Of a stretch of 64,000 nt of DNA, positions 18,309-39,486 are shown piece after piece (the stretch's first letter is position 1; every line of letters begins with the position of its first letter). Below the pieces are notes generated by a model that was not told the DNA's origin, ran no database searches, and was given only the letters and a program-made list of their open reading frames with translations. A program made the translations under genes and the position numbers. Origin of the DNA: Candidatus Polarisedimenticolia bacterium (GTDB taxonomy: Bacteria > Acidobacteriota > Polarisedimenticolia > JACPZX01 > DASXTC01); NCBI GenBank assembly GCA_036505635.1, contig DASXTC010000021.1, positions 124,032 to 188,031 on the forward strand, in the 5' to 3' direction.

Positions 18309-20215
18309 CTGCCCTCCAGGGAAGCGAGCGTCTGGCGGATCCAGTCCGCGCGCGGGTGAGCGGGGTTGAGACGCAGCACCTCATTGAGATGTCGAGACGC
18401 CTCGGGCGCGTCGGGCAGGTCCCGCAGGAGAATGAGCGCCGCTCCGTAGTGGGCGTCGGCCAGAAGGACAGGGTCGATCCCGGCGCCGCCGGTCCGGGAT
18501 CCGCGCAGCGCCTCCTCGACGGCTGCCAGCGCCTCGCGAGGGCGCCCGGCCTTGTGAAGCGTCTCGGCCAGACGCAGCGTCCTTGCGAAGAGATCCCGTC
18601 TAAGATCCGGGTCGGGCGAGACCTCCGCCCTCCTCAGGTGCTCGAGGGTCTCGTCGTCGATCGCTTCGCCGTTCGCGTCGCGGGCCAGCACGATCCCCCA
18701 GTGCGCCGAACCGATGACCCGAAGGCGCTGACCGCTCTCCGGTTCCGTGGGGTGCCCCTCGAGCAGCGAGAGGGTTCTCCGGAACTGGTCCTCCGCCTCC
18801 CGGGCCCGCCCCGCGTGCAGGTACATCTCCCCCAGGATCCCGTGGTTCTGCGCCTCGAAGGCCAGCTCGTTGCCCGGGTCGCGTCCGGCGAAGAGCGCCA
18901 GCGCCGCGACGGCGGCTCCCAACGCCCCGGCCCGGAGCCACGCGCTGTCTCGCACCGCCCGCGCTAGCTCCATCGCCCCGTGAGAGGCGAACAGCGTCAT
19001 GAGCGGCACCATCGGCATCCGGTAGCGATCCTGGGTGAAGAAGAGGAGCGCCGACAGCAGGTAGCAACCCATCGTCGCGTGCAGCGGCAGCAGCTCGGCC
19101 CAGCGCCGGGCCGACAGGGCGAGCCCCGCCAGACCGAGCGGCGCGATCCAGCCGAAGCCGACCAAGGGCAGCCGAAGCAGCGGGAGGAATACGCGGAAGT
19201 TGTAATACGAGTAGTTGTCCGGTCTCTCGTAGGCCGTGAAGTAGGTCGACAGCTTGTCCCAGAGCAGGGCGAGGTACATGGCCGGGTGCCCCGTGATGAA
19301 CCGCATCCCCTCGGCCCACCAGAAGGCATCCGACTCCTTGCGCGTGATGGCGCCGGGCGGACGCCCGAGCCTGCGCGCGGCCTCCGCCCTGAAGTCCTCG
19401 TGCTCGAAGAAGGGATCGGGACGGACGAAGGCGGGGGGCCGGTAATGGCCCGAGGCGTGCTCGTTGTTGCCCGTGTAGAAGACCTCGCCGCCGCCCGAGG
19501 TGATGAGGACGAAGTCGCCCGACAGGGTGTAGTTGCGCAGCGTGGCCGGCGCCACGGTGAGCGCGAAGCCGCCGAGCAGCGCCCCGGCGCACGCCAGACG
19601 CCTTCCCGCCGGCGCCCTGAAGGCGATCCACGCCAGTAGAAAGGGGATCGTGACGTTGATGTTCTCCTGCGCCAGCGCGGTCAGCCCAAGCAGGATCCCG
19701 CCGCACAGAAGCGCGCGCCATCGCGTCCCGCCCGACCAGTACAGGACGGCCGCCGTGGCCGTCGAGAGGGTCACGGTCAGGACCGTCTTCATGATCTGCG
19801 TCTCGTGAAAGAGCGCCGGCCCGTATGCCGCCAGCGCAAGCCCGGCGACGAGCCCCTCCACGCGGCCGAAGGCGCGCGCCCCGAGAAGCGCCACCAGCGC
19901 GCAGGTCCCCGCTCCCAGGAGCGCCTGCAGAAGGCGCGGCGCCATGAGGCCGTAGCCGAACAGCTTGAAGACGCCTCCCAGCGCGTAGGCATACAGAGGC
20001 GTCATCTCGTAGGTTCCCGAGCCGAGCACCTCTCCCTTGGAGATCCTCACCGCCCAGTCGTGGTAATAGAGCGGGTCGAGCCTCAGGTAGTCCCAGAGCC
20101 CCGAAGCGTGAAGCTGCCGGAGGATGACGAGCCGGAGAATCAGGGCCACCGCGAAGACGCCGGCCGGCATGAGGACCCAGCCCGTTTCGCGGCGGGAATG
20201 GAGCGCCAAAGCCAT
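18305..20215 (-). CDS. GT39/ArnT-like membrane glycosyltransferase with C-terminal TPR-like domain
   Basis: 636 aa. N-terminal polytopic domain paralogous to 17160-18308 (GYGLMAPRLLQALLGAGTCALVAL). C-terminal helical repeat region. ATGA-type overlap with the downstream paralog. Confidence 0.7.
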   Translation of the reverse strand: MALALHSRRETGWVLMPAGVFAVALILRLVILRQLHASGLWDYLRLDPLYYHDWAVRISKGEVLGSGTYEMTPLYAYALGGVFKLFGYGLMAPRLLQALLGAGTCALVALLGARAFGRVEGLVAGLALAAYGPALFHETQIMKTVLTVTLSTATAAVLYWSGGTRWRALLCGGILLGLTALAQENINVTIPFLLAWIAFRAPAGRRLACAGALLGGFALTVAPATLRNYTLSGDFVLITSGGGEVFYTGNNEHASGHYRPPAFVRPDPFFEHEDFRAEAARRLGRPPGAITRKESDAFWWAEGMRFITGHPAMYLALLWDKLSTYFTAYERPDNYSYYNFRVFLPLLRLPLVGFGWIAPLGLAGLALSARRWAELLPLHATMGCYLLSALLFFTQDRYRMPMVPLMTLFASHGAMELARAVRDSAWLRAGALGAAVAALALFAGRDPGNELAFEAQNHGILGEMYLHAGRAREAEDQFRRTLSLLEGHPTEPESGQRLRVIGSAHWGIVLARDANGEAIDDETLEHLRRAEVSPDPDLRRDLFARTLRLAETLHKAGRPREALAAVEEALRGSRTGGAGIDPVLLADAHYGAALILLRDLPDAPEASRHLNEVLRLNPAHPRADWIRQTLASLEGR

Positions 20216-20224
20216 ACGACCGCG

Positions 20225-22096
20225 ATGCTATCACATGGTACGATGGCCCCAATGGCGTGCCTGGTCTTTTCGGACAACTCGGGGCGGCAGATCGTCTATT
20301 CGATCGACCGGGACCGCGTGTCGATCGGCCGCAGCAACGACAATGACATCGTGTCGCTCGACCTACGTGTGTCTCGCCATCACGCCAGCATCACGCGCTC
20401 GAGCGACGACGGCGCGTGCTCCATTCGTGACGAAGGAAGCTCGCTGGGCGTCTTCGTCAATCAAAAGCGGGTCACCGATTCGCCGCTGCGCGACGGCGAC
20501 ACCATCAGGATCGGAGACTCGATCTACTCGTTCGTCGACATCCCCGCCAGCCCCCTGGACAGCTACTCGGGGCTTGGCGGCCAGGCGCCCAGCGACGCCG
20601 GGCTGCGCGGCGGGGCGCTGGTGGCGGAGCTGCAGGAGGCGATCGGCTCGCTCCGGCACACGATCCACGACGCGCATTCGGACCGCCGCATCCTGGACCA
20701 GTGCCTCTCGCTCGTGGACGCGCGCCTCGAGAGCCTCCGCCACCACCTCATCCGCATCGAGCGCGGGCGTCTGATGATGCAGACCCTCTACGAGGTCGGC
20801 AAGATCATCAACTCATCCTACGACCGCGCCAACCTGCTCGAGCTGGTCCTCGAGCTGGCGGTCAACGTGGTTCGCGCCGAGCGGGGCTTCCTCACCCTCT
20901 ACGAACCCGGGTCGGGCGCCTTCACGAGGCGGGCCGCGATCAACATGGGCGAGGCGGCCCCGGCCACGCGGGACGTGGCGGACGCCGTCACGACGTTGAC
21001 GGACGCCCCGGCAGAGTCCGCGCGCGCGCCCCTCCCGGCCGGCGGGCGCGGTTTCTCCACCGGGATCGCCCTGACGGTCGCGCGCACGGGCAAGCCTGTC
21101 GTCACCACCGACGCGCAGGCCGACGAGCGGTTCATGCAGATGAACAGCGTCGTCGATCTCAACATCCGGTCCGCGCTCTGCGTGCCGCTGGTGGATCGTT
21201 CCGGCGCGGTGATGGGCGTCCTCTACGTCGACACCCGGGCCTCGATCGTCATGTTCACCAGCGAGGACCAGGACTTCCTGATGGCGTTCGCCAACTACGC
21301 CTCGATCGCCATCGAGAACGCGGCGCTCTTCGCCGAGGCGGGAGCCAGGGCGCGCGTTGAGGAGGAGCTGCGCCAGGCGCGCAAGCTCGACGAGATGAAG
21401 TCGGATATGATCTCGATCGTCTCGCACGACGTCCGCACGCCGTTGACCTCGATCAAGTCGTACGCGGAGATCCTGCACGACGATTTCGATTCGCTCGGCT
21501 CCGATCAGGTGAGGCACTTCCTCGACATCATCAACCGGGAGGCGGACCGCCTCTCCCGGCTCGTGACCACATACCTCGACCTGCAGAAGATCGAGGCGGG
21601 CATGATGCGTCTGACGCTCGCGCCGATCGAGGTGCGCGAACTCATCGAGGAATCGCTCCAGACGTTCGTGGGGACCGCCCTGGACAAGGAGATCGCTCTG
21701 TCCAAACGGGTGGACCCGGGTCTTCCGGCCCTCCAGGGGGACCGGGACCGGCTGCTCCAGGTCCTCGCCAACCTGCTCTCCAACGCGCTGAAGTTCACCC
21801 CCAAGGGGGGCGCGGTCACGGTCGGCGCCTCGACGTCGACGCTGCCGGGCAGCGGCCGGGCGCTCGAGATCACCGTGCGGGACACGGGCGAGGGGATCCC
21901 CCCCGACAAGCTGGACCATCTCTTCCGGCGCTTCGTGCAGATGGGCGAGGGGCGCACCGAGCAGAAGCGCGGCACGGGCCTCGGCCTGGTCTTCTCCAGG
22001 GAGATCGTGGAGCTGCACGGTGGCCGCGTCGGGGTGGCCAGCACACCCGGGGAGGGGACCACCTTCCAGGTGGTCCTGCCGGTGGACGGTCCCTGA
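20225..22096 (+). CDS. FHA-GAF-sensor histidine kinase
   Basis: N-terminal FHA domain (VSIGRSNDNDIVSLDLRVSRHHASI...GSSLGVFVNQKRV). Central GAF domain. HisKA H-box (SIVSHDVRTPLTSI) and HATPase_c (RDTGEGIP...GTGLGL). Start taken at ATG 20225; alternatives are 20243 and 20252. Confidence 0.8.
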   Translation: MLSHGTMAPMACLVFSDNSGRQIVYSIDRDRVSIGRSNDNDIVSLDLRVSRHHASITRSSDDGACSIRDEGSSLGVFVNQKRVTDSPLRDGDTIRIGDSIYSFVDIPASPLDSYSGLGGQAPSDAGLRGGALVAELQEAIGSLRHTIHDAHSDRRILDQCLSLVDARLESLRHHLIRIERGRLMMQTLYEVGKIINSSYDRANLLELVLELAVNVVRAERGFLTLYEPGSGAFTRRAAINMGEAAPATRDVADAVTTLTDAPAESARAPLPAGGRGFSTGIALTVARTGKPVVTTDAQADERFMQMNSVVDLNIRSALCVPLVDRSGAVMGVLYVDTRASIVMFTSEDQDFLMAFANYASIAIENAALFAEAGARARVEEELRQARKLDEMKSDMISIVSHDVRTPLTSIKSYAEILHDDFDSLGSDQVRHFLDIINREADRLSRLVTTYLDLQKIEAGMMRLTLAPIEVRELIEESLQTFVGTALDKEIALSKRVDPGLPALQGDRDRLLQVLANLLSNALKFTPKGGAVTVGASTSTLPGSGRALEITVRDTGEGIPPDKLDHLFRRFVQMGEGRTEQKRGTGLGLVFSREIVELHGGRVGVASTPGEGTTFQVVLPVDGP

Positions 22097-27733: not shown

Positions 27734-28468
27734 ATGGCGCAATGGCTCGTCTTTTTCGCCGGAATCCTCCTGGGCGCGGCCATCGCGGCGCTCCTGGCCC
27801 GGCAGGCTCACCGCCGCGCGCGCCGCGCCGAAGTCGAACGGCTCCGCCTGCTCGCCCACGACCTGCGCACGCCCCTCTCCTCCATCACGGCCTACAGCGA
27901 GATCCTGGCGGACGAGGAGGAGAGCGACCCGGCGCAACGCGCGCGCTTCCTCGGATTCATCCACGAGGAGACGCTGCGCCTTGGCGGGATCATCGACGAG
28001 CGGATCGCCGGCGACCGGGCCGCAGCCCCGGTTGCGGCCACGGCCGGGACGCCCCGGCACGCGCCCGAGAGCCCTCCCGCCCGCGGCCGCACCATCCTCG
28101 TTGTGGACGACGACCGGTTCATCGCGGACGCGACCCGGACGCTGCTGGCAAGGGAAGGGTACGAGGCGCTGGGCGCCTACGGCGGTGACGAGGCGCTCGA
28201 GAGGGCCCGGGGCTCCCGCCCCGATGTGATCGTGATGGATCTGATGATGCCCGGCATCAGGGGGGACGAGGCGCTTCGGCGCCTCAGGACCGATCCCGCG
28301 ACCCGCGACATCCCCGTGATCATCACCACGGGCGAGGTGGGCGCCCAGGCGCTCGAGGGGGCCGCCGAAGTCCTGGCCAAACCGATCACCCGCGAGGCGT
28401 TGCTGGCCGCGATCGACCGGGCCGCATGCGCTGCGGTCACACAGGGGGACAGGAGGGACGAGTCTTGA
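27734..28468 (+). CDS. membrane-anchored HisKA (phospho-acceptor) - receiver protein lacking an HATPase_c domain
   Basis: N-terminal TM helix. H-box LRLLAHDLRTPLSSITAYSEIL. Receiver domain ILVVDDDRF...DVIVMDLMMPG...KP. At 244 aa there is no room for N/G1/G2 ATPase boxes. Confidence 0.7.
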   Translation: MAQWLVFFAGILLGAAIAALLARQAHRRARRAEVERLRLLAHDLRTPLSSITAYSEILADEEESDPAQRARFLGFIHEETLRLGGIIDERIAGDRAAAPVAATAGTPRHAPESPPARGRTILVVDDDRFIADATRTLLAREGYEALGAYGGDEALERARGSRPDVIVMDLMMPGIRGDEALRRLRTDPATRDIPVIITTGEVGAQALEGAAEVLAKPITREALLAAIDRAACAAVTQGDRRDES

Positions 28469-28833
28469 AGAAGGTCCTGGTCTGCGACGACGAGCCGCAC
28501 ATCCTGGAGGCGGTGGCCTTCGTCGCGCGCAAGGAGGGATACACGGTTCTGACCGCCGAGGACGGCGAGCAGGGCCTCCGCCTGGCGCGCGAGGAGCGTC
28601 CCGGGCTCGTGCTGCTCGACCTGAACATGCCGATCAAGTCGGGATACCAGGTCTGCGAGGAGATCAAGAGCGATCCGGGCATGAAGGGCACGTACGTGAT
28701 CATGCTCACCGCCAAGGGGCAGGAGTCGGACCGCGCGCGCGGGGTGGCCGCGGGCGCCGACGAGTACATCACGAAGCCTTTCTCCCCGCGAAAGTTGCGC
28801 CAGAGGCTGGTGGAGATCCTGGGGACGCCGTGA
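28465..28833 (+). CDS. single-domain response regulator (CheY-like receiver)
   Basis: KVLVCDDEPHILE...LVLLDLNMPIKSG...ITKPF. Start at TTG 28465, preceded by GGAGG at 28453-28457. An alternative ATG at 28426 overlaps the upstream gene. Confidence 0.7.
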   Translation: MKKVLVCDDEPHILEAVAFVARKEGYTVLTAEDGEQGLRLAREERPGLVLLDLNMPIKSGYQVCEEIKSDPGMKGTYVIMLTAKGQESDRARGVAAGADEYITKPFSPRKLRQRLVEILGTP

Positions 28834-28844
28834 GGTGACGCACC

Positions 28845-30821
28845 GTGGGCGCTGACAACGAGACCGAGCTGCGCAGGCGCCTCGACGGCGTCACGGCCGA
28901 GCTGCTCTCCACGTACGAGGAGATCGAGGCCCTCACGACGGTGGCGGAGATCGCGGCCAGCAGCACCGACGTCGCGTCGGTGGGCCGGCGGATCCTCGAG
29001 GAGGCGGCCGGCCTCCTTCAGGCCGACGTCGCCTTCGTCATCTACACCGACCGGGAGCTCAAGGGCGAGGAGCCCGCCCCCGCCGGTGTCACGAACGGGG
29101 AGCGCGACGCGATCGCGGCCGCGCTGGCGAGGTGGCTGTCGGAGCAGCCCCGGCCCATCCTGATGGCCCCCTTCAGCGAAGGGGCCGGGATCCCCCACGC
29201 CCCCGACGCGCTGCTGGCCGTGCCGCTGCGGTGCGAGGGGCTGGTGCTGGGAGCCATGTGCCTGGGCCGGCGCGGCGAGGGGGCGACCTTCACGGCCGGC
29301 GATCTGAAGATCCTCTCGGTGCTCGGTTCGAGCGCGGCCTCCGTGCTCCTCCAGCGCAAGAACCTCGACCTGGTCAGATTGTCGCGCGGTCTGGAGGAGC
29401 GCAACCAGCTCCTCAAGGGGATCCTCGCCATCAGCCGCGAGATCGCCTCCACGCTGGATCTCGACCGGCTCCTGCACGCGCTGTCGAACCTCCCCACCCG
29501 CGCGCTGGGGTTCGACCGGTGCGCGGTCCTCCTGGACGAAGGCGGCAGCCGGCGGCTGCGCGCCGTGTCGGGAGCCGCGCACGTGGATCGAGGAGACACC
29601 GAGATGAAGTCGCTCGAGCGCGCGCTCGACTGGGTGGCCGGCCGGGGTACGCAGGTGACCGCGCAGGAGCGGGCGAGCGAGGGGGGGACGACCCTCGTGG
29701 CCGATCCTCCCGAGGCTGCCGCCCAGCTCGCCGCGCACATGAAGATGGCCGGGGCGCGGTCGTTCCTGGCCATCCCGATGTCCGATGACCAGGGGCTCCT
29801 GGGCGTTCTGTCGCTGGAGAGCGGCGCGGAGGGGTTCCTGGATGAGCGGCGACTGGAAGGAGCCACGATCCTTGCCAACCAGGCCACCGTCGCGCTGCGC
29901 AACGCGCAGCTTTACGGGGAGATGCCTCTCATCCGGCTGCTCGGGCCGTTGCGCGGCGGGCTGGCGAAGGTGCGGACACTTCCCCGAAGGAAGCTCGCGG
30001 CCTGGGGAGCCGCGGCCCTCGTGCTGATGGCGATCCTGATCTTCGGGCGCTGGAACCTGAAGGTTCCGGGCAACGTGACCATCCTGCCGTCCCGCATCGT
30101 GCTGGTGAGCGCCCGCGTGCGCGGCGTGATCCTCGAGGTGGGCCCCTATCACGAGGGGGATCGGGTCCCGAAGGGCGCGGTGCTCGCGCGGCTCGAGGTG
30201 CCCGACCTGAGGATGCGTCTCAACGAGGCGACCTCACAGGAGGAGAGCGCGCTGCGGGGCATGACCCGGCTGCAGGCCGAAGGACGGGCGGCGGATCTCG
30301 CCGTGGCGCGCATCGAGCTGGAGCGGTGGCGCAACGAGCGCGCGTTGCTGGCGGAGCGGATCGAGGAGGCGTCGATGCGCGCCCCCGTGGATGGGCTCCT
30401 CCTGACGCCGCGGCTGGAGGAGCGCGCGGGTGAGCTGCTGGAAGTGGGGGGGGTCTTCTGCACGCTGGCCGGCCTCGACCGCCTGCGCGTGGAGATCGCC
30501 GTCAAGGAGGTCGATGCCGACATCCTGGTGAAGCGCGGGCCCGATGGGCGGGAGCCGGCCGCGGCGGCCGCGCTCAAGTTCAGCGCCTTCCCCGCCGTCG
30601 ATTACCGGGCCCGGATCGTGAAGGTGCGCGCGGCGGCCGAGGTGATCGAGGGGGCGCGCTCGCTCGTGGCCGAGGGGGAGATCGAGGAGGGCCCGGAGGG
30701 AACCGGTGGCCTCAAGCCGGGGATGACCGGCTTCGCGCGGATCGACGCGGGCCCCAGGGCGCTCATCTCGATCATCCTGCGCAAACCGTACCGTTTCGTG
30801 AGGAGCATGATCTGGCTATGA
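28845..30821 (+). CDS. GAF-GAF-TM-HlyD-family membrane fusion protein
   Basis: Two N-terminal GAF-like regulatory domains. One TM helix (AAWGAAALVLMAILIFG). The C-terminal half has HlyD/biotin-lipoyl-like adaptor features (VTILPSRIVLVSARVRGVILEV..., coiled coil, RAPVDGLL, GMTGFARI). Confidence 0.7.
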   Translation: MGADNETELRRRLDGVTAELLSTYEEIEALTTVAEIAASSTDVASVGRRILEEAAGLLQADVAFVIYTDRELKGEEPAPAGVTNGERDAIAAALARWLSEQPRPILMAPFSEGAGIPHAPDALLAVPLRCEGLVLGAMCLGRRGEGATFTAGDLKILSVLGSSAASVLLQRKNLDLVRLSRGLEERNQLLKGILAISREIASTLDLDRLLHALSNLPTRALGFDRCAVLLDEGGSRRLRAVSGAAHVDRGDTEMKSLERALDWVAGRGTQVTAQERASEGGTTLVADPPEAAAQLAAHMKMAGARSFLAIPMSDDQGLLGVLSLESGAEGFLDERRLEGATILANQATVALRNAQLYGEMPLIRLLGPLRGGLAKVRTLPRRKLAAWGAAALVLMAILIFGRWNLKVPGNVTILPSRIVLVSARVRGVILEVGPYHEGDRVPKGAVLARLEVPDLRMRLNEATSQEESALRGMTRLQAEGRAADLAVARIELERWRNERALLAERIEEASMRAPVDGLLLTPRLEERAGELLEVGGVFCTLAGLDRLRVEIAVKEVDADILVKRGPDGREPAAAAALKFSAFPAVDYRARIVKVRAAAEVIEGARSLVAEGEIEEGPEGTGGLKPGMTGFARIDAGPRALISIILRKPYRFVRSMIWL

Positions 30822-31957
30822 GGAAAGGGTGCGCTCTGCTCGTCTGGGGGATGGCGCTCGCTGCGGCGGGGGCCGGCGGCTGCGACCGCTCGCGTCAGGC
30901 CGAGGCGGCGGCCGCCTCGACCCCGGGCGGGCCGGCGCCGGTGGAGGCGACCCCCACGCTCCCCTCCGCGCCCGCTCCCCGGACCATCGCTGCGGTGGGG
31001 GGCCGGCCGATCCCCCGCACGCTCCTGCTCGACAGCCACCTGCTGGTGGAAAGAGACGTGGCGGTGACCGCGCGGCGCGACGGCTTCGTCGAGACGATCC
31101 ACGTGGACCGCGGCCAGCTCGTCACGGAGGACGACCCACTGGCAACTCTCGAGCACGGCGATCTCCTCGTCAGCGAGAAGGAGGCGATGCTGGAGCTGGA
31201 GAAAGAGCAGGCCTCCTTCGAGCGCGCGGCGAGGCTTCACGAACAGGAGATCATCCCGAGAGAGGAGTTCGAGCAGGCGCGTCTGCGGCGCGACGCCGCG
31301 CAGAAGGCGCTGGAGCGGATCCGCTACGAGATCGGCAAGTGCGTCATCAGGGCGCCATTCGACGGCGTGGTCTCGGGACGCTTCGTCGAGAAGGGCCAGG
31401 TCATCAAGGAGGACGACGGAAGGCCGTTGTTTCAGGTGACGGCGCTCAGGCCGTTGCTGGCGCGCGTCTATCTTCCGGAGTGGGCGCTGTTCGGGGTCCG
31501 CGAGGGGCACCGCGTCGGCCTCGCGCCGGCCGCCTTCTTTCCGGCCGGCGGGGATCCCGACGGAGGCGGCATCGAGGCGAAGGTGCGCTGGATCAACCAT
31601 GTCCTGGACGCGGCCTCCGGGTCGGCCGAGATGCTCGTGGAGATCACCGGCGGGCCCGGCGCGGCCCGCCTGCGCCCCGGCATGTCGGTCCAGGTGCGCA
31701 TCGATCTGTCCTATGGGGCGGGAGCCGCCGGCGGTGGAGACATCGTGAGCCTGCCGCGCGAGGCGGTCGGCCCGTCTGAGCCCTCCCCGGGCCAGCGGAT
31801 CGAGCTTCAGGTCCTGACCAAGGGGGGCGCCATCGAGGCGCGCTCGGTCGTGCTGGGCTTCGTCGGGGACGAGCGTGTCGAGGTGCGACGCGGTCTGTCG
31901 GCGGGCGAGAAGGTCGTCCTCGGACCGGCGGCGCCTCCCCCTGCCGCCGTCCCATGA
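30818..31957 (+). CDS. HlyD/RND-adaptor-family periplasmic lipoprotein
   Basis: Lipobox AAGAGGC. Coiled-coil hairpin and beta-barrel adaptor segments (IRAPFDGVVSGR, RPGMSVQVRI). ATGA overlap with the upstream gene. Confidence 0.75.
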   Translation: MRKGCALLVWGMALAAAGAGGCDRSRQAEAAAASTPGGPAPVEATPTLPSAPAPRTIAAVGGRPIPRTLLLDSHLLVERDVAVTARRDGFVETIHVDRGQLVTEDDPLATLEHGDLLVSEKEAMLELEKEQASFERAARLHEQEIIPREEFEQARLRRDAAQKALERIRYEIGKCVIRAPFDGVVSGRFVEKGQVIKEDDGRPLFQVTALRPLLARVYLPEWALFGVREGHRVGLAPAAFFPAGGDPDGGGIEAKVRWINHVLDAASGSAEMLVEITGGPGAARLRPGMSVQVRIDLSYGAGAAGGGDIVSLPREAVGPSEPSPGQRIELQVLTKGGAIEARSVVLGFVGDERVEVRRGLSAGEKVVLGPAAPPPAAVP

Positions 31958-34149
31958 GCGCAACTCCTCGCCTGGCGCGGGGGGTCACGATCACCCGGCG
32001 GCAGGTCGGCGAGGATGAGGTCTACTATCTCGTCCGCGAGCCCCGCGGCGGCTCGTTCCTCCGCATGGGGGAGATCGAAGCCACGGTCCTGCGGCTGCTC
32101 GACGGCTCCCGGACCATCGAGGAGGTCTCCCGGGCGCTGGATCTGTCCCACGAGACGAACGTCGAGGCGCAGGTCATCGAGGAGTTCATCGGCTCGATGA
32201 CCCGCAAGGGGCTCGTGGAGAAACGCGGCTTCGATCCTGCGGCGTTCCGGCAGGAATGGCTCCAGCAGGCGCGGTCGCGGCGCAGGAGCCTCGGACAGCT
32301 CCTGGGCACCCTGGCCACGTTCAAGCTCCACCTCATCAATCCGCTGGGACTCTTCTCCCGTATCGTCGGCCCGCTGAGCTTCATCTGGTCTCCCGCGTTC
32401 GTCGTCGCGTCGCTCGCGCTGATGGCGGTGGCCGGGGTGATGGGGTTCGTCTATAGCGCCGAGGTGCTCGCATCGTCGCGAGTCTTCTGGGCCGGCATGA
32501 CCTCCTCGGCGGCCGCGTTCGCCTCCAACGCGCTCCTCTTCTACGTGATCTTCTTCGTGGTGATCGCGCTGCACGAGCTGTCCCACGGGCTGACGTGCGC
32601 CCATTTCGGCGGCAAGATCACCGACATGGGATTCATCCTCTTCTACCTGCAGGTGCCGGGCGTGTACTGCGACATCACCGATGCCTACTCGTTCGAGAAG
32701 CGCAGCCAGCGCCTCTGGACCACGGTGGCCGGCTGTTACTCGGGCCTCGTGCTGGCCTCCTTCGGGATGATCCTGTGGTGGGCGACCGAGCCGGGCGACC
32801 TGCTCAACAAGGCGGCCATCGTGCTGATGCTCGTGGGGGGGCCGCCGGTCGTGATGTTCAACTGGAACCCGCTGCTCAAGCTCGACGGCTACTACATTTT
32901 GATGGATCTGCTCGAAGCGCCGAACCTGATGGACAACTCGAGAAAGCACCTCGGGTACCTCTTCAAGTCGAGGGTGCTGCGGGTCCCGGTGGAGCCGGTG
33001 AGCGTCCCACCGCGTCTCCGGACGGCGTACGTGGTTTATGGGATCGCCAGCATCGCCTTCATCGCGCCATTCACGATCTACATGCCGGTGATCGTCTACT
33101 ACATCTTCTCCCGCCTGGTGGGGGAGGCGCTGGCGCTGCCGATCGCCGCGGTGATGGCGTACAGGATGGTGATGGTCTACGCCAGGAAGCTCTTCGAGAC
33201 GCTCAAGTACACATGGCTGTCGCACCGGCCCGCTCAGGCGGGAGGCGAGACAGGCCGGCTCCGTCCGGGGATGATGGGGGCCGGGGCCGCGGCGGGGCTC
33301 GCGCTCCTGGCGTTCGGGCCGCGGTTCGCGGTGAGAGCCGAGGGGACCGGCACGCTCGAGCCGCTCGAGAGGATCGAGGTGCGTGCCGCCTGGCCGGGAT
33401 TCGTCGCCGAGTCGGGAGGCTCCGGCGCGATGCCGGCGGAGGGAGCGCTGGTGCGGGCGGGGGATCCCCTGGTGCGCCTCGAGAACCTCGAGGTGGATGC
33501 CGGACGCCGCTCGGTCGATCTGGAGCTGGCGGCGCTGCGCGCGGACCTCTCCCGTCTGGAAGCGCGACGCGAGCCGGCACAGGCCATGATGAGACGCTCG
33601 GAGGAGCGGGCGCTTCAGGGGGACGCGCTCGTGCTGGCGAGGCGCGTGGAGGAGCTCACGCTGCGGGCGCCGATTGCCGGCGTGGTCCTCACGCCACGTC
33701 TTCAGGATAAGCTCGGGGCCTATCTCGGGTCGGGAGAGACCTGGTGCGTCATCGGGAGGATCGATCGTCTGCGCGTGCGCGTTCCGCTCAGCGAGAAGGA
33801 CCTGGGCCTCATCGACGAGACGAGCGAGGCCGGCGTCAAAGGGCCGCACCTGCCCGGAGAGATCTTCCGGGGACGCGTGACGCGAATGCCGGCGGGCAGA
33901 AGGCCCGCCCGGCCGGGGCTGCAGGGCCACCAGCCCCAGCCCGTGACCGCCGCCATGACGGCAACGCCCGGTGAGGGGGTCTCGCCGGTCTCCGGCTCGC
34001 TCCAGGTCGAGGTCGAGGTGGACAACGCGTCGGGGCTCCTGCGCCCCGGGATGACGGCCCAGGTCCGCATCTACGGCGAGCGCATGAGCCTCGCCGCCCA
34101 CGCCCTGCGCTGGGCGCACCGCCTTTTCAAGGGGAAGGTGTGGTGGTGA
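31954..34149 (+). CDS. three-domain fusion: PqqD/RRE-like N-domain - site-2-protease (peptidase M50) membrane domain - HlyD-like adaptor domain
   Basis: Residues 1-100 resemble a PqqD-type peptide-binding domain (EDEVYYLVREPRGGSFLRMGEIEATVLRLLDGSRTIEEV). HExxH is present as HELSHG inside a TM helix, plus the S2P NPLLKLDG motif. The C-terminal 250 aa have coiled-coil and RAPIAGVVLTP ... RPGMTAQVRI adaptor motifs. Confidence 0.7.
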   Translation: MSATPRLARGVTITRRQVGEDEVYYLVREPRGGSFLRMGEIEATVLRLLDGSRTIEEVSRALDLSHETNVEAQVIEEFIGSMTRKGLVEKRGFDPAAFRQEWLQQARSRRRSLGQLLGTLATFKLHLINPLGLFSRIVGPLSFIWSPAFVVASLALMAVAGVMGFVYSAEVLASSRVFWAGMTSSAAAFASNALLFYVIFFVVIALHELSHGLTCAHFGGKITDMGFILFYLQVPGVYCDITDAYSFEKRSQRLWTTVAGCYSGLVLASFGMILWWATEPGDLLNKAAIVLMLVGGPPVVMFNWNPLLKLDGYYILMDLLEAPNLMDNSRKHLGYLFKSRVLRVPVEPVSVPPRLRTAYVVYGIASIAFIAPFTIYMPVIVYYIFSRLVGEALALPIAAVMAYRMVMVYARKLFETLKYTWLSHRPAQAGGETGRLRPGMMGAGAAAGLALLAFGPRFAVRAEGTGTLEPLERIEVRAAWPGFVAESGGSGAMPAEGALVRAGDPLVRLENLEVDAGRRSVDLELAALRADLSRLEARREPAQAMMRRSEERALQGDALVLARRVEELTLRAPIAGVVLTPRLQDKLGAYLGSGETWCVIGRIDRLRVRVPLSEKDLGLIDETSEAGVKGPHLPGEIFRGRVTRMPAGRRPARPGLQGHQPQPVTAAMTATPGEGVSPVSGSLQVEVEVDNASGLLRPGMTAQVRIYGERMSLAAHALRWAHRLFKGKVWW

Positions 34150-35023
34150 GACGGCTCAGGTCGAGGCGGCCGCCGGCGGTGGGAGGGCACCAGTAGTAGC
34201 CCCCCGAGATCGGACGCGAGAAGCTGAACAGGGCGTCGACGATCCCGTCCTCCAGGCCAAGCATCCGCCGCAGCACGCGCTCGAACAGGTCGAGGGAGTG
34301 CCCGTACGCGATGAACTCGAGCCCCTGCTGGCGAGCCGTAGCCCAGGGCATGGAGCGCCGGACCATGAACGCGGGCGGATCGTAGCTCTCCTGGGCTGTG
34401 CGCTTCACGTGGGCCGACGCGGGCGCCTCCTCGATCTCGGCGTTCGTGTCCATACGGCGGCCCACCACGGCGTCGCGCCGGTCGGCCGCGAACCCCCGGA
34501 ACCGGCGCAGGTCGTGTACCCAGCGTTGCACGGCCACGAAGCTCGAGCCGGTCATCCCGCCGCCGGCCGGGACCAGGGCCGCCTCCGCGGCCGCGTCCCC
34601 GCGCGGATTCTCGGTGCCGTCCTCGTAGCCCGTGAGGTCGCGCCCCCCCGCATAGGTGAACGTGTCCACCGAGTCGTCCAGGAGGAACGCTCCGTCCACC
34701 AACGTCGCGACCCGATCGGTCATCTCGAACAAATCCCCGGGATTCGCTCCGCGCAGGAAGATCCATAGCGCCTGCTGAGTGGAGGGCACGGTGGACCCGG
34801 GCCCCGAGAGCCCGGGGAAGGTGCGCAGGCCGGGCACGTCACTTCCAAGCGAACGCACGACCGGTTCTCCCAGACCGACGACTCCCTGGTCTAGAGCGAA
34901 ACCATCCCCCAGCCGGCGAAGGGCGGCGCGCGGATCGGCCTGCGCCGCGAGGCGGAAGGTCAGAGAGCGGCCGAGCGCCGGCGGAGCCGCCAGGATTCCC
35001 GGCTGGGACAGATCCGTCTTCAT
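34127..35023 (-). CDS. Dyp-type haem peroxidase (B-type, cytoplasmic)
   Basis: Start at MKTDLSQPGILAAPP. The C-terminal 3' end converges on and overlaps the 31954-34149 gene. The 5' start has an ATGA overlap with the upstream hydrolase gene. Confidence 0.75.
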   Translation of the reverse strand: MKTDLSQPGILAAPPALGRSLTFRLAAQADPRAALRRLGDGFALDQGVVGLGEPVVRSLGSDVPGLRTFPGLSGPGSTVPSTQQALWIFLRGANPGDLFEMTDRVATLVDGAFLLDDSVDTFTYAGGRDLTGYEDGTENPRGDAAAEAALVPAGGGMTGSSFVAVQRWVHDLRRFRGFAADRRDAVVGRRMDTNAEIEEAPASAHVKRTAQESYDPPAFMVRRSMPWATARQQGLEFIAYGHSLDLFERVLRRMLGLEDGIVDALFSFSRPISGGYYWCPPTAGGRLDLSRLTTTPSP

Positions 35024-35814
35024 CCGTGCTCTCCCTCCTCGAGTCGCCGGCGCAGGACGGAATAGAAGTCGTCGCGAACGCCCCTCTCCAGCCACGGGTA
35101 GTGCCCGCAGCGCTCCCACTCATGGTACTCCAGCGCCGGCAGGTGAGGCGCGAGGCTCGCCCGGATGAGCCGCCCCGGGTGCGGATCGAGCGCGCCGTGA
35201 AGCATGATCACGGGCGCATCGATCGCCGCGAAGGCAGCCGGGTAGACCCCCGCGGCCTGGAGCCGGAGCATGTCGGCCCAGGTCTCCTGGTACGCCCGCG
35301 CGTCGCATCCCTCCACCCCCAGCCCGCCGGCCTCGGGATCGCATGAGTAGAGCGGCAGCAGCAGGTCGCCCATGACCCCGAGACGCTCGTCCGGATCGGG
35401 AAACTCCACGGAGAGCCGTTCCAGTCGCCGCCGGAGAGGCCCGTCCATGCGCTCCTCCCTCACCGCCCGCAACCGATCGCGGGCCGCCCTGTCGAAGGTG
35501 CCGCACCCGATGAGGACGATTGAGGTGGCGAAGCCGGGGTGCGCCGCGGCGTAGGCGAGCGCCAGCATGGCTCCCCAGGAGTGGCCGACGAGGGCCGGCC
35601 GCGCGTCCGGGCGCCGGCGCACGAGCTCGTGGAGGTCCTCGACGTGCCGGGCCACGGTGAGTGGCTCGCCGGAGCTGCCGCGCTGGAACGGTTCGAGGAT
35701 CCGGAACGAATCGGCGAGCTCGCGCGCCACCGGCGCCAGGTATCCCGGCGCTCCCGGGCCGCCGTGCAGGAGGACCACGAGCGGCCCCGATGTCCCGTGC
35801 CCGCGAACTCTCAT
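35020..35814 (-). CDS. alpha/beta hydrolase (proline-iminopeptidase-like)
   Basis: VVLLHGGPGA and nucleophile elbow GHSWGA. Confidence 0.75.
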   Translation of the reverse strand: MRVRGHGTSGPLVVLLHGGPGAPGYLAPVARELADSFRILEPFQRGSSGEPLTVARHVEDLHELVRRRPDARPALVGHSWGAMLALAYAAAHPGFATSIVLIGCGTFDRAARDRLRAVREERMDGPLRRRLERLSVEFPDPDERLGVMGDLLLPLYSCDPEAGGLGVEGCDARAYQETWADMLRLQAAGVYPAAFAAIDAPVIMLHGALDPHPGRLIRASLAPHLPALEYHEWERCGHYPWLERGVRDDFYSVLRRRLEEGEHG

Positions 35815-35865
35815 GGATGCCGGCGACGAAGGGCCAGCCGCTTCACGCCGGAGGGAGCGAGCCCC

Positions 35866-36360
35866 TCACCTCTCCCCCTCCCAGTAGTCCACGCCATCCT
35901 TCAGATGCGTGAAGTGGCGGACCGAGTCGGCGGACGGCGGGCGTCCCCCATGCGCCCCGGCGATCACCCCGAGCTTTCCGGAGTCCGGGTATTCCACGAC
36001 CTCCGGCAGCTCCATCGTGCTCACGGCCAGGTATCGAAGGGGCGCCTTGGAGTCGTTGATGATCTGGTGGGCGGATTCGCGTCCCGGCGGCAGGGAGATG
36101 AAGTCTCCCTTGCGCACCGCGCGGGTCGTCCCACCCACCCTCAGGGAACCTTCGCCCTCGAGGATGAAGAACATCTCCTCGTTGCCCCGGTGCGCGTGGT
36201 AGGGGAAGGCCCGCTTGCCCGGGGGCACGACCGTGACGTTGAACCCGAGCATCTTCGAGTCGAGCTGCGCTCCCACCCGCGCTATCTCGCACTCGAAGCT
36301 CTCGCCGTGGGATCGCTTCTCGAACGGCACGTCCTCGATGTTCAATACCTGCGACTTCAT
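35866..36360 (-). CDS. cupin-domain protein
   Basis: Two-His cupin motif 1 (YHAHRGNEEMFFILEG) and motif 2 (GDFISLPPGRESAHQI). Start at MKSQVLNIEDV. Confidence 0.75.
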   Translation of the reverse strand: MKSQVLNIEDVPFEKRSHGESFECEIARVGAQLDSKMLGFNVTVVPPGKRAFPYHAHRGNEEMFFILEGEGSLRVGGTTRAVRKGDFISLPPGRESAHQIINDSKAPLRYLAVSTMELPEVVEYPDSGKLGVIAGAHGGRPPSADSVRHFTHLKDGVDYWEGER

Positions 36361-36643
36361 CCGCACCTCCTTCCTGGCGCAATGGGCCGAACATAACACA
36401 GAAGGTCACGCACGCTACCGCCCGGCCCATCGACGCACCATCTCGTGATGGGCCGATCAGGTGGACGGCAACCGACTGGATCGACTGCGCCGACGGCTCA
36501 CCGGGGTGCTGGGCGGCATAGGCGTCCACCGTCAGGCGGTGCGTGGGGCCGTCCGCTCCGGACACGAGCGCCCCGCATCCAATGCAGTGGATGGGATCCT
36601 GGCGCGTGGTCATCGGCGATGCTCCGCCGGCGGCGGACGCGGG

Positions 36644-37727: not shown

Positions 37728-37739
37728 AGGCGCCGCGCG

Positions 37740-38126: not shown

Positions 38127-38147
38127 TTCCCGCTTGCTCCTGACTTG

Positions 38148-38630: not shown

Positions 38631-38707
38631 GGCCCGTTCCTGTCCTTCCAACTCAGGGCCTCCTCTATCGGTTAGACTCCCGTCATGACCCGCCGCCGCT
38701 TCACAGA

Positions 38708-39292: not shown

Positions 39293-39486
39293 CGGCCTGA
39301 TGCTCCCTCACCGCTCGACGGGCCGACATGACCACGGCCCCGCGGCAGCCGCGACATGGTGGTCGCGGTCCTCTTGAGCGGGTAGCTGGAAGGAGTGTTT
39401 ACCACCAAATCACGCTGCTGTGAAGGCCCCGCGCTGGAGTCCGGCATTTCCCTTCACTTGACGATCGATGCCCTGAGATGAAAGTG

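Follow-up and report, generated by a model that had tools for sequence, protein, structure and literature searches.

Periplasmic adaptors of the membrane fusion protein (MFP) type, such as MacA, AcrA, MexA, EmrA and HlyD, combine a membrane anchor with a split lipoyl domain, an alpha-hairpin and a beta-barrel. A conserved locus in which HlyD domains occur in a GAF protein and in a Peptidase_M50 protein, accompanied by a further HlyD protein and a SecA_DEAD ATPase, was described by Kamneva, Poudel & Ward in 2015 (PMC4452313), with META1p2399-2402 of Methylobacterium extorquens AM1 as an example; OEP genes are sometimes included, and some components of the module may be located at other sites in the genome. 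The M50 likeness of the membrane protein with HlyD domains is weak in that module, and the study gave no function, RRE-like domain or candidate substrate (PMC4452313). A sensor-fused adaptor also has a precedent in Alg44 of Pseudomonas aeruginosa, in which a PilZ domain is followed by a transmembrane (TM) segment and an MFP-like domain, and which, within an assembly that spans the envelope, is the regulatory co-subunit of the membrane enzyme Alg8 (PMC4436075). A sequence-only reading of the present locus had started from the premise that MFPs are normally passive, which overlooks this c-di-GMP-activated protein. On the protease side, in the leader peptidase MpaP of daptide clusters an RRE forms the N-terminal part of a fusion with an intramembrane site-2 protease (S2P; bioRxiv 10.1101/2023.03.08.531785).

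In this study, a five-gene operon encoding a GAF-GAF-TM-MFP protein (GAF-MFP) was analyzed in the window, the whole 64,000-nucleotide stretch of DNA from a Candidatus Polarisedimenticolia bacterium. The combination of GAF-HlyD, M50-HlyD and HlyD proteins is not new, having been described in 2015 (PMC4452313); a GAF protein with HlyD and biotin_lipoyl domains, an M50-like HlyD membrane protein and a plain HlyD protein, without an ABC transporter, are common to that module and the window. However, the SecA_DEAD gene of the Kamneva loci has no counterpart among the large ORFs of the window or the conserved neighbours of 86 Acidobacteriota and Gemmatimonadota loci, the unit in the window adds upstream HisKA-REC and REC genes (STAS in other clades), and the phylum differs. 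The equivalence of the two sets of genes is drawn from architecture and neighbourhood. For the window, the outcome is a five-gene operon whose annotation is well supported, and not a system of a new kind.

Anatomy of the GAF-MFP protein

The gene, whose product is publicly annotated as a 'GAF domain-containing protein', is translated from its first codon. The GAF region can be taken as coding because GC3 is high throughout (0.87-0.97 in each stretch of 300 nt, the N-terminal third being no exception) and the GTG start is preceded at 8-11 nt by a GAGG Shine-Dalgarno sequence; the homologues are full-length as well. A true start further downstream, near the TM helix, which would leave the N-terminal region untranslated, was ruled out by these three observations, with GC3 at or above 0.87 from codon 1 onwards.

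The order that had been read from the sequence, namely two GAF domains, a TM helix and an HlyD-type adaptor, was confirmed by Pfam, an AF2 model and Foldseek (Table 1). In the whole-protein Pfam search, GAF_2 (1.5e-20) and GAF (2.7e-19) each matched in two stretches, followed by HlyD_D23 (7.6e-09) and HlyD_3 (6.5e-05). The AF2 model (pLDDT 87) shows GAF-A, a 52-residue helix, GAF-B, a signalling helix, the TM helix, the lipoyl domain, an alpha-hairpin and a beta-barrel. Only one hydrophobic segment, at aa ~381-405, serves as a membrane anchor, a second hydrophobic stretch (aa 122-140) being the beta-strands of GAF-A. The N-side flank of the TM helix is the more basic one (KVRTLPRRK) and fits a cytoplasmic N-terminus; the proposed cytoplasmic location of the GAF domains is supported.

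Table 1. Positions of the GAF-MFP gene, its domains and the associated genes in the window
Feature	Position	Strand	Extent	Evidence and remarks
FHA-GAF-HisKA-HATPase_c histidine kinase, soluble; possible cognate kinase	19805..22096	+		Pfam; ~5.6 kb upstream of the operon
HisKA-REC, membrane-anchored; first operon gene	27734..28468	+	244 aa	Pfam HisKA, Response_reg
Single-domain response regulator, REC only	28465..28833	+	122 aa, TTG start	Response_reg 4.9e-30
GAF-GAF-TM-MFP gene	28845..30821	+	658 aa, GTG start	ORF, Pfam, AF2 model, Foldseek
GAF-A	28965..29348	+	aa 41-168	GAF_2 38.9 bits scored alone; least conserved part of the family
GAF-B	29457..29897	+	aa 205-351	GAF 48.4 bits scored alone; signalling helix aa 334-378 follows
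Single TM helix of GAF-MFP	29985..30044	+	aa 381-400	Hydropathy peak 2.02, AF2 helix
Periplasmic MFP domain of GAF-MFP	30048..30764	+		Lipoyl halves, alpha-hairpin, beta-barrel; Pfam HlyD_D23 and HlyD_3, AF2, Foldseek
Lipoprotein MFP, AcrA-like	30818..31957	+	379 aa	NCBIfam RND_mfp, lipobox
M50-MFP fusion	31954..34149	+	731 aa	PqqD/RRE-like (putative) aa ~1-90; M50/S2P-like aa ~130-454; MFP aa 457-726

The C-terminal part shows the defining features of the HlyD superfamily, i.e. an anchor with a periplasmic domain, a split lipoyl domain, an alpha-hairpin (aa 453-479 and 482-507 in the AF2 model) and a barrel (aa 537-640), which it shares with MacA, AcrA, MexA, EmrA and HlyD. In the Foldseek search of this part MacA scored best (2.5e-15), followed by AcrA and MexA, and EmrA was also found. 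Unlike these classical adaptors, GAF-MFP has a 380-aa cytoplasmic tandem GAF region ahead of its anchor, lacks the membrane-proximal domain in the AF2 model and has no cognate ABC, RND or MFS gene nearby; its scores lie below the NCBIfam cutoffs (RND_mfp, 53.3 versus 94.9 bits; type_I_hlyD, 28.6 versus 208.65). Alg44 likewise places a cytoplasmic sensor before one TM helix and a periplasmic adaptor-like domain. Its sensor, however, is a PilZ domain that binds c-di-GMP rather than a tandem GAF, its partner is a glycosyltransferase with a polysaccharide product rather than a metalloprotease, and the sequence relationship is limited to the adaptor fold.

Profile searches of the N-terminal region, in which each GAF domain was scored singly, exceeded the Pfam cutoffs of 28.6 bits for GAF-A and 22.4 bits for GAF-B. 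Foldseek matched the N-terminal part to the tandem GAF domains of PDE5A (3mf0_B, 4.5e-12 over 381 columns) and PDE2A (3ibj_A, 1.2e-11), while a PDB phmmer search with aa 1-375 gave no match at E <= 0.01. As in PDE2A, PDE5A and the cyanobacterial CyaB cyclases, two GAF folds are joined by a long helix and leave through a signalling helix to an effector; the sequence identity to such modules is 13-16%, and the output is a TM helix with a periplasmic adaptor instead of a catalytic domain. GAF-A and GAF-B were compared with each other and rejected as recent duplicates. Mean column conservation within the family rises from 0.42 in GAF-A to 0.58 in GAF-B and 0.66 in the signalling helix, the best-conserved segment, and the residues D205, G243, D314, G317, G320, E338, Q346, V349, R352, N353, L356, Y357 and P361 are invariant.

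Cyclic-nucleotide-binding GAF domains carry the NKFDE motif, N-K...F-x3-D-E (Schultz 2009, cited in PMC4452313). The PDE2A, PDE5A and CyaB modules have it, whereas inspection of both GAF sequences of GAF-MFP showed that neither contains even the dipeptide NK, the domains ending in FTAGDL (GAF-A) and FLDERRLE (GAF-B). A conserved bilin-type Cys was found in neither domain, by sequence or by family conservation. Classical cyclic-nucleotide- or bilin-binding GAF domains were thus rejected by motif, and the proposal that a cyclic nucleotide is sensed in the cytoplasm is unsupported because NKFDE is absent. Input from a protein (STAS or REC) is at least as likely as a small ligand, since the conserved neighbouring gene encodes a phospho-switch protein of one of these types.

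The operon and its protease gene

The translationally coupled genes follow the order HisKA-REC, REC, GAF-MFP, lipoprotein MFP and a PqqD-like/M50-type protease/MFP fusion (M50-MFP), and the five-gene operon recurs on five independent contigs of the clade to which the window belongs. The HisKA-REC stop overlaps the REC start, and ATGA start/stop overlaps link all three adaptor-domain genes; the adaptor lipoprotein and the M50-HlyD fusion had been named correctly as neighbours in the sequence-only reading. The lipoprotein begins with MRKGCALLVWGMALAAAGAGGCD, its lipobox ending AGG|CD, and reaches 143 bits against the RND_mfp cutoff of 94.9. HisKA-REC has a TM segment (aa 4-22) followed by HisKA (3.1e-10, aa 39-89) and Response_reg (6.3e-22, aa 121-227) domains; HATPase_c was not found in the Pfam search, and the protein was annotated as a putative phosphotransfer or phosphatase element. 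Its gene is kept in the related loci L002, L088 and L090, and L089 has a longer HAMP-HisKA-REC version. The REC gene call at positions 3336-3704 of L001 corresponds to the position given for the window in Table 1.

The soluble FHA-GAF kinase upstream may be the cognate kinase of the operon, a link that we infer; in L088 the same gene is found at the syntenic position before the operon, and an FHA-GAF-SpoIIE phosphatase is present in STAS-type loci such as L010. A ligand shared between this kinase and GAF-MFP was considered and rejected, the GAF domains of GAF-MFP showing no specific similarity to that of the kinase. No convincing sigma54 promoter was found at the operon of the window.

M50-MFP carries the HExxH and NxxPxxxxDG motifs together with HlyD domains. 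H207, E208, H211, N303, P306, D311 and G312 are invariant in all 42 homologues compared, Peptidase_M50 was detected in 40 of these 42 family members, and in a PDB profile search the HExxH helix aligns with that of mjS2P (3b4r). The NCBIfam model daptide_HExxH aligns almost over its full length (aa 5-411 to model positions 1-374 of 379), but at 161 bits against a cutoff of 300, and the partner is therefore not a daptide peptidase; the YydH/LiaK models also match. The signals for a PqqD/RRE domain at the N-terminus are weak but coherent: Pfam PqqD gave a sub-threshold E value of 0.046, the domain was detected in five of 42 family members (best 6e-4), a precomputed PF05402 match exists for several homologues, and sub-threshold PDB profile matches at aa 3-90 include PqqD (0.035) as well as TfuB1 and TbiB1 (~0.17-0.18). 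The AF2 model (pLDDT 84) predicts a beta3-alpha3 topology for this region, and the MFP part matches MacA at 2.4e-12.

By these comparisons M50-MFP appears to resemble RRE-dependent RiPP leader peptidases, which the sequence-only reading had not noticed. MpaP and the YydH/LiaK epipeptide proteases share with M50-MFP a polytopic core with both motifs, while the PqqD/RRE-like N-terminus ahead of this core is putative in M50-MFP; unlike them, M50-MFP has a C-terminal periplasmic adaptor and is paired with GAF-MFP. Furthermore, daptide-modifying enzymes and precursor genes, which daptide clusters contain, are absent from the window.

Conservation across related loci

The same architecture, which the sequence-only reading had suggested seeking in other genomes, proved common, with a GAF-MFP relative in at least 329 species genomes, mostly of Acidobacteriota and Gemmatimonadota. 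A representative library gave 12,161 matches at E <= 1e-30, a count swollen by giant multi-GAF proteins; among the best 150 of these, only 67 are shorter than 1,100 aa, of which ~63 reach the adaptor part. Pairing with M50-MFP was counted in the 72 loci that have at least 3.5 kb downstream, using an ORF analysis unfiltered by GC3. Strict clustering placed M50-MFP downstream on the same strand in 66 of them (immediately next to GAF-MFP in 38, with one plain MFP in between in 28), and the other six have an M50 phmmer match outside the cluster, mostly owing to ORF-boundary artefacts. The pairing is obligate, holding in essentially all 72 informative loci.

The slot upstream of GAF-MFP holds a small phospho-switch protein, which is STAS in most clades (directly upstream in 46 of 79 loci and anywhere in the locus in 66) and REC in the window. 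A sigma54 response regulator occurs in 63 of 72 loci, and Ser/Thr kinases and ECF sigma factors are also found among the neighbours. No ABC, RND, MFS, SecA_DEAD or OEP protein was found among the window ORFs of at least 380 aa, and ABC, RND, SecA_DEAD or TolC proteins are not consistent neighbours in the conserved clusters of the 86 loci. Neighbour clustering was also used to look for an overlooked transporter, ATPase or outer-membrane factor as a partner, and it gave no general one. The suggestion of a regulated unit instead of an ordinary efflux pump thus held, in that GAF-MFP and M50-MFP are same-strand neighbours in essentially all 72 loci, with no consistent transporter.

Orphan permeases of the MacB-like kind are very abundant in Acidobacteria. 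Here, they occur in ~10 loci of particular subclades: a duplicated form lies between STAS and GAF-MFP in six Terriglobia loci, and a 451-aa form is found in four further loci. A pst phosphate operon lies near GAF-MFP in 11-20 loci, which reflects clade synteny, and an MbnB/TglH and DUF2063 pair lies 3-5 kb away in eight.

Candidate substrates were found in the relatives. A small ORF with a conserved N-terminus of ~35 aa and a hypervariable repeat tail occurs in 45 of the 86 related loci, in nearly all of them adjoining M50-MFP or within ~4 kb, and sigma54-type promoters precede 12 of 52 such ORFs, as against ~1 expected. One example is the product of L004 14675-15175. In lacking both hydrophobic segments and Cys, these proteins differ from the usual S2P substrates and RiPP cores. 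A search of the window for a substrate gene, which combined TRF, regular expressions and the leader HMM at E values as high as 50, gave none, and neither the window nor its closest relatives (L002, L088-L090) contain a leader-type small ORF, a coding repeat array or a RiPP-modifying enzyme; a peptide substrate for the operon of the window is for this reason a conjecture.

Proposed mechanism and alternative explanations

In the preferred reading, to which we assign a probability of roughly 0.45, GAF-MFP would regulate a complex of protease and adaptors whose task is to process, and perhaps export, a peptide. Facing the cytoplasm, GAF-MFP would be the regulatory member of a hetero-oligomeric complex of the inner membrane and periplasm. 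The catalytic core of this complex would be the co-translated M50-MFP, in which a putative PqqD/RRE-like region for peptide recognition is combined with a zinc peptidase of the site-2-protease-like kind and an adaptor on the periplasmic side. The adaptor domains of GAF-MFP, the lipoprotein and M50-MFP may form one periplasmic ring or tube, as the MacAB and AcrAB adaptors do. The tandem GAF would dimerize by way of its long helices and detect a signal in the cytoplasm (a small ligand, phosphorylated REC or, elsewhere, STAS, or both). This signal would travel from the GAF-B signalling helix to the TM helix and so start or stop the cleavage of the peptide and, possibly, its export.

The proposal is supported by the domain anatomy and topology, by the obligate pairing with M50-MFP, the ATGA overlaps and the recurrence of the operon, by the lack of a consistent transporter, ATPase or outer-membrane-factor neighbour, and by Alg44 as a precedent. 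A regulatory role of the GAF domains is favoured by the high conservation of the GAF-B signalling helix and by the STAS or REC gene in the slot directly upstream, and the peptidase reading by the invariant HExxH and NxxPxxxxDG motifs, the near full-length daptide_HExxH alignment and the candidate substrates of the relatives. Against the proposal, the RRE assignment draws on sub-threshold matches, the repeat-tailed proteins, which lack hydrophobic segments and Cys, are atypical for S2P or RiPP systems, and the GAF domains may bind no ligand. No energy source for export is encoded near the operon. A more specific form of the proposal, a signal-gated trans-envelope machine without a transporter, is doubtful: here the RRE-S2P would recognize the conserved 'leader' at the N-terminus of the small proteins, cut it off and pass the repeat tail on to a conduit of three different adaptors in the periplasm, which GAF-MFP would gate through phosphorylated REC or STAS and perhaps a ligand.

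Conventional tripartite export, either efflux or type I secretion, would have the transporter and TolC-like channel encoded elsewhere, the adaptors bridging them and the GAF domains tuning assembly. The adaptor domains are predicted to fold like MacA, AcrA and MexA and to keep an alpha-hairpin of the TolC-docking kind, outer-membrane factors are often encoded apart from their pumps, and the MacB-like permeases described above may point in the same direction, as may the SecA_DEAD and occasional OEP genes of the Kamneva loci (PMC4452313). However, those permeases are confined to particular subclades, none of the transporter or channel families sought is present among the large window ORFs or the conserved clusters, the sole polytopic membrane protein that is always present is the M50-type protease, and GAF-MFP lacks the membrane-proximal domain and stays below the RND_mfp cutoff (53 versus 94.9 bits), which makes this explanation unlikely. 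Signalling by regulated intramembrane proteolysis without export is also improbable. An S2P-like core would then cut an anti-sigma-type or small cytoplasmic regulator, the adaptors would have only a scaffolding or sensory part in the periplasm, comparable to that of the RseP PDZ domains, and GAF-MFP would inhibit or activate the protease as BofA/SpoIVFA do for SpoIVFB. The catalytic motifs are intact, the module lies amid the signalling genes listed above, and S2P members are classically engaged in signalling and equipped with regulatory extra-membrane domains (PMC9401612, PMC7593790). Nevertheless, no anti-sigma/sigma pair is a consistent neighbour, M50-MFP is closer to RRE-type leader peptidases than to RseP or SpoIVFB, TM segments are absent from the candidate substrates of the relatives, and three hairpin-bearing adaptors would be elaborate as a mere scaffold, with no cargo passing through the periplasm.

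A different question is whether the GAF domains are a degenerate, ligand-free platform for dimerization or docking, which would set ring stoichiometry or recruit substrate in the manner of the HlyD cytoplasmic tail. The missing NKFDE motif and Cys, the poor conservation of GAF-A, the lack of a PDB sequence relative at E <= 0.01 and the absence of a specific relationship to the GAF domain of the nearby kinase would all suit such a platform. This is very doubtful, however, in view of the best-conserved GAF-B and its exit helix, with invariant polar residues (D205, D314, E338, Q346, R352 and N353) typical of signalling GAF domains, the tandem arrangement matching the PDE2/PDE5 regulatory modules and the phospho-switch gene next to GAF-MFP.

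Hundreds of species from soil phyla that are abundant but little studied encode the module, which has stayed uncharacterized since its first description in 2015. To the earlier description are added a putative RRE-like protease domain, interchangeable STAS and REC inputs, and sigma54-controlled leader-plus-repeat small proteins as candidate substrates. If the model of a regulated protease-adaptor complex is true, MFP domains would not be limited to bridging pumps and TolC but would also be assembly modules for a regulated membrane protease, to which a cytoplasmic GAF input would be wired through a single TM helix. If the signal-gated machine without a transporter is also true, it would represent a new route of secretion or maturation, distinct from ABC/PCAT-based peptide export, and this route would be widespread in Acidobacteriota, Gemmatimonadota and, according to Kamneva et al. 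(PMC4452313), the PVC group and Proteobacteria.

Architecture of the GAF-MFP protein

The sequence-only reading had proposed a tandem of cytoplasmic GAF domains joined through one transmembrane (TM) helix to an HlyD-type periplasmic adaptor (membrane fusion protein, MFP), and this arrangement of the protein, termed GAF-MFP, was borne out. GC3 was 0.87-0.97 in each 300-nt window of its ORF, first codon included, and a GAGG Shine-Dalgarno sequence lies shortly 5' of the start, directly after the stop of the receiver gene; the N-terminal region is therefore translated and a start near the TM helix is excluded, in agreement with the full-length homologues. Pfam matched GAF_2 (1.5e-20) and GAF (2.7e-19) in two stretches, as well as HlyD_D23 and HlyD_3, and GAF-A (residues 41-168) and GAF-B (residues 205-351) alone each exceeded the gathering threshold (38.9 and 48.4 bits, respectively). 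Because the residues bordering the single membrane-anchor hydrophobic helix (residues 381-400) are more basic on the N-terminal side, the GAFs are cytoplasmic and the adaptor is periplasmic; the presence of a Tol-Pal cluster indicates a diderm host.

An AlphaFold2 model (40 homologues in the alignment, pLDDT 87) begins with an N-terminal helix and GAF-A; a connecting helix of 52 residues leads to GAF-B, which is followed by a signalling helix and then the TM helix. After these come a split lipoyl domain bearing an alpha-hairpin (2 x 26 residues), a beta-barrel and a short conserved C-terminal helix, with no membrane-proximal domain. In Foldseek searches of the PDB, the C-terminal half matched MacA (2.5e-15), AcrA, MexA and EmrA, and the N-terminal half matched the tandem GAF-A/GAF-B of PDE5A (4.5e-12, 381 columns) and PDE2A. 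As modelled, GAF-MFP belongs by fold to the HlyD/MFP superfamily; its scores are below the curated cutoffs for RND_mfp and type-I HlyD. Conservation within the family is highest in the GAF-B exit helix (0.66, compared with 0.42 for GAF-A).

Although the N-terminal half is a PDE-like tandem GAF by fold, it carries no cNMP motif, NKFDE being absent from both GAFs. No PDB sequence relative was found at E <= 0.01, and no specific kinship with the GAF of the upstream FHA-GAF kinase was detected. The cyclic-nucleotide signal suggested earlier thus finds no backing in these domains, nor does a bilin-type comparison, since both lack the conserved Cys. Among the contexts surveyed, one alone hints at cyclic nucleotides: in a Gemmatimonadota locus (L006), the genes directly after the three-gene module encode a Crp-type cNMP-binding transcription factor, a short peptide of the leader type and a large adenylate/guanylate cyclase-AAA-TPR protein.

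Distribution, operon and phospho-switch genes

The window protein has a 100% identical counterpart in a Candidatus Polarisedimenticolia (Acidobacteriota) MAG, where it bears the annotation 'GAF domain-containing protein'. A search for homologous architectures showed this one to be common to more than 120 clusters at 90% identity, with relatives encoded by at least 329 species-representative genomes, the best 80 of which belong to Acidobacteriota (Thermoanaerobaculia, Terriglobia, Acidiferrales) and Gemmatimonadota. In a library of 50%-identity representatives, 67 of the best 150 matches are shorter than 1,100 aa, about 63 of which extend into the adaptor part; the remainder are giant multi-GAF proteins, so that library totals do not give the size of the family. 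In dozens of proteins of 1.4-3.9 thousand aa (P0246, P0251-P0253 and others), between 5 and 18 distinct stretches match the GAF part of the profile, a sign of very long poly-GAF arrays; these proteins are unrelated to the adaptor fusion.

In the window, five closely packed + strand genes make up an operon, in which ATGA start/stop overlaps link the genes of GAF-MFP, a lipoprotein MFP and M50-MFP (a fusion of a putative PqqD/RRE-like domain, an M50/S2P protease and an MFP); terminator-like sites within it are no more frequent than expected by chance. The neighbourhoods of 86 loci were surveyed, M50-MFP being counted in the 72 with at least 3.5 kb downstream. Under strict clustering, M50-MFP follows on the same strand in 66/72 (directly adjacent in 38, after one plain MFP in 28), and the other six have an M50 phmmer match outside the cluster, mostly through ORF-boundary artefacts. 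The pairing is obligate and translationally coupled.

The slot directly 5' of GAF-MFP is occupied by two unrelated small phospho-switch proteins, REC in the window's clade and STAS in most others (L004, L007 and the majority of L008-L087). The STAS protein, of 111 aa, is encoded in 66 of 79 loci, directly upstream of GAF-MFP in 46, and is replaced in the window's clade by HisKA-REC and REC, on five independent contigs. This interchangeability suggests that GAF-MFP receives a protein input. A sigma54-dependent response regulator was found in 63/72 loci.

The window HisKA-REC retains its H-box (HDLRTPL) and receiver Asp and, missing the ATPase domain, would be incapable of autophosphorylation; presumably it is a phosphotransfer or phosphatase relay to the adjoining REC. 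L089 has a 599-aa HAMP-HisKA-REC at the same position, also without a detected ATPase domain. A soluble FHA-GAF-HisKA-HATPase_c histidine kinase lies ~5.6 kb 5' of the operon and is syntenic in L088; STAS-type loci have an FHA-GAF-SpoIIE phosphatase in its stead. One kind of sensory head may therefore serve both switches, leading to phosphorylation of REC in the former and to dephosphorylation of STAS in the latter. Succinyl-CoA synthetase genes lie directly 3' of M50-MFP in L002, L088 and L090; in the window they are separated from it by ~6.5 kb of other genes. In eight Thermoanaerobaculia-type loci, an MbnB/TglH/ChrH-type RiPP-modifying enzyme (E 1e-109) and its DUF2063 partner are encoded 3-5 kb 5' of the STAS-GAF-MFP operon.

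Coordinates of features in the window and in other GAF-MFP loci (L numbers)
Feature	Locus	Position	Strand	Remark
FHA-GAF-HisKA-HATPase_c kinase	window	19805-22096	+	
Membrane-anchored HisKA-REC without HATPase_c	window	27734-28468	+	operon gene 1
Single-domain REC	window	28465-28833	+	operon gene 2
GAF-MFP	window	28845-30821	+	658 aa, GTG start
AcrA-like lipoprotein MFP	window	30818-31957	+	RND_mfp 143 bits; lipobox ...AGG|CD
M50-MFP fusion	window	31954-34149	+	731 aa, operon gene 5
Inserted genes	window	34127-40700		DyP peroxidase (overlaps M50-MFP stop by 23 nt), alpha/beta hydrolase, cupin, RibD_C, Rce1-like CPBP protease, acetyltransferase, ICMT
sucC	window	40745		
FHA-GAF-SpoIIE phosphatase	L010	16250-17926		
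MbnB/TglH/ChrH + DUF2063 pair	L028; L055	5383-6399; 4522-5370	-	six further loci each
MacB_PCD/FtsX duplicated permease, ~850 aa	L068	6249-8822	-	with five other Terriglobia loci; between STAS and GAF-MFP, divergent
MacB-like permease, 451 aa	L021	6137-7492	-	one of four loci with this permease
Module and following genes	L006	14817-19284	+	
MFP/HATPase_c/response regulator operon	L004	15301-18159	-	precedes small-protein gene
Small leader-plus-repeat protein	L004	14675-15175	-	example
Small leader-plus-repeat protein	L040	14144-14584	-	example
Two small leader-plus-repeat proteins	L063	13853-14380, 14436-15062	-	example
Small leader-type protein	L006	15719-15877	+	example
Sigma54-like site	L010	13985	-	TGGCACATCGATTGCT
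Basic ORFs, ~34 aa	L043; L046; L033	14881-14991; 15236-15340; 14993-15100	-	Terriglobia-type loci
72-aa protein with (SAKAV)n tail	L007	15575-15793	-	
Short ORF with LEER[IV][AS]P motif	L005	9619-9783	+	ends ...TLEERIAPAKFAF

The M50-MFP protease and candidate substrates

Residues H207, E208 and H211 (HExxH) and N303, P306, D311 and G312 (NxxPxxxxDG) of M50-MFP are invariant in 42 homologues, from which it is predicted to be a catalytically competent M50/S2P-type metalloprotease; in a PDB profile search an archaeal S2P structure aligned at the HExxH helix. The C-terminal 270 aa form a further MacA-like adaptor domain. MpaP, the leader peptidase of daptide clusters, has a RiPP recognition element (RRE) N-terminal to a site-2 protease (bioRxiv 10.1101/2023.03.08.531785). 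M50-MFP resembles it in placing a candidate RRE/PqqD-like domain before an S2P-type protease, and its first 411 aa cover almost the entire NCBIfam daptide leader-peptidase model at 161 bits, under the family cutoff of 300; the match to YydH/LiaK is weaker. The case for this putative domain (residues ~1-90) is weak but coherent: Pfam PqqD matches the window protein weakly (E 0.046) and is detected in 5/42 family members, with precomputed matches in further homologues, the AF2 model of the N-terminal domain has a beta3-alpha3 topology, and weak PDB profile matches at residues 3-90 are to PqqD (0.035, 0.18), the lasso-peptide RREs TfuB1 and TbiB1 (~0.17) and PqqCD.

In 45/86 loci one or two small proteins are encoded, mostly right after the M50-MFP gene, with a conserved ~35-aa N-terminus (e.g. 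M..EVKIKLTDAQKAKIKEATGKDLPEIRVESFG; consensus M..EV[KR]I.LT..QK.KI[KR].ATGK...EIRV.S.G) and hypervariable tails of short-period repeats, for example (KPLA)n, (SPKL)n, (GRTPG)n, (EEGLR)n, (GKPGLS)n and (AQDLS)n, containing no Cys and few hydrophobic residues. The Gemmatimonadota forms are 48-60 aa long and end a few residues after ...ELEERVSP. The small proteins tested matched none of the Pfam or NCBIfam models. Sigma54-type -24/-12 elements lie 5' of 12/52 small-protein genes, compared with ~1 expected, and the small-protein gene is preceded by an opposite-strand operon for a small MFP (~250 aa), an HATPase_c protein of ~240 aa and a sigma54-dependent response regulator; together, these resemble a transcriptional circuit devoted to the candidate substrate. 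A conserved leader and variable core beside a peptidase of putative RRE type is how a precursor and the enzyme that processes it are laid out. The small proteins are candidate substrates of M50-MFP. The window and its closest relatives contain no leader-type small ORF and no coding repeat array; the small-protein data support the model at the level of the family, not a specific substrate for the window operon.

Other short ORFs were also observed. At least nine Terriglobia-type loci have a highly conserved basic ORF of ~34 aa (MEKKSKPVKGKKTAPVKPLMKRADLPAVKPLIRF) shortly 3' of M50-MFP and antisense to it, and the short ORF of L005 shares a LEER[IV][AS]P motif with the Gemmatimonadota peptides.

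Role of the module and relation to known systems

The best explanation overall, at a probability of roughly 0.45, is that GAF-MFP is a regulatory subunit of the M50-MFP complex and that the module processes and perhaps exports peptides; taken separately, the regulatory role is probable and the processing and export tentative. We infer that the adaptor domains of GAF-MFP, the lipoprotein MFP and M50-MFP co-assemble in the periplasm and that the GAF tandem dimerises via its long helices. The tandem would take a cytoplasmic signal, which may come from REC~P or STAS, from a small ligand or from both, and which would run through the signalling and TM helices to govern whether a peptide substrate can reach the putative RRE-S2P core and, possibly, pass outward.

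GAF-MFP might alternatively serve as a conventional adaptor whose transporter is encoded at another site in the genome. Transporter-like neighbour clusters are a pst operon, which is clade synteny, and MacB-like orphan permeases at ~10 loci, which may be chance synteny or, as MacA is the best structural match of the adaptor domains, a lead to a transporter partner. The ~850-aa permease is of the orphan type typical of Acidobacteria. Across the 86 loci, none of the general neighbours encodes an ABC, RND, MFS, SecA_DEAD or TolC-family component, and no such gene was found among the window ORFs of at least 380 aa, all of which were checked; this alternative is considered unlikely. A purely regulated-intramembrane-proteolysis signalling device is given the same low weight. 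Slightly less likely still, and partly orthogonal to the other alternatives, is that the GAFs are structural rather than sensory, as their missing ligand motifs might suggest; the interchangeable STAS and REC genes point to an input.

The regulatory-subunit reading thus retains from the sequence-only reading a regulatory role in the M50-MFP unit, with no general transporter neighbour, and drops the cyclic-nucleotide signal and the premise that adaptors are normally passive, to which the sensor-fused adaptor Alg44 was already an exception (PMC4436075). The module is not a new kind of system, since the architecture is widespread, automatically annotated and described in the literature. Kamneva et al. 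(PMC4452313) reported an M50-like protein with HlyD domains, an HlyD protein, a GAF protein that 'also contains HlyD and biotin_lipoyl domains' and a secondary SecA_DEAD ATPase, the role of which module was 'completely unknown'. No follow-up study was found in the literature searched, and fusions to GAF or M50 go unmentioned in two major reviews of adaptor proteins. The same triad is present in both, whereas the window has phosphorelay input and no SecA_DEAD; the window operon is an Acidobacteriota variant of that module, new in lacking SecA_DEAD and in having REC input. The module is of interest because it is abundant and offers concrete handles: the putative RRE-like domain, the exchange of STAS and REC as switch, and candidate substrates of the leader-plus-repeat kind that are under sigma54 control.
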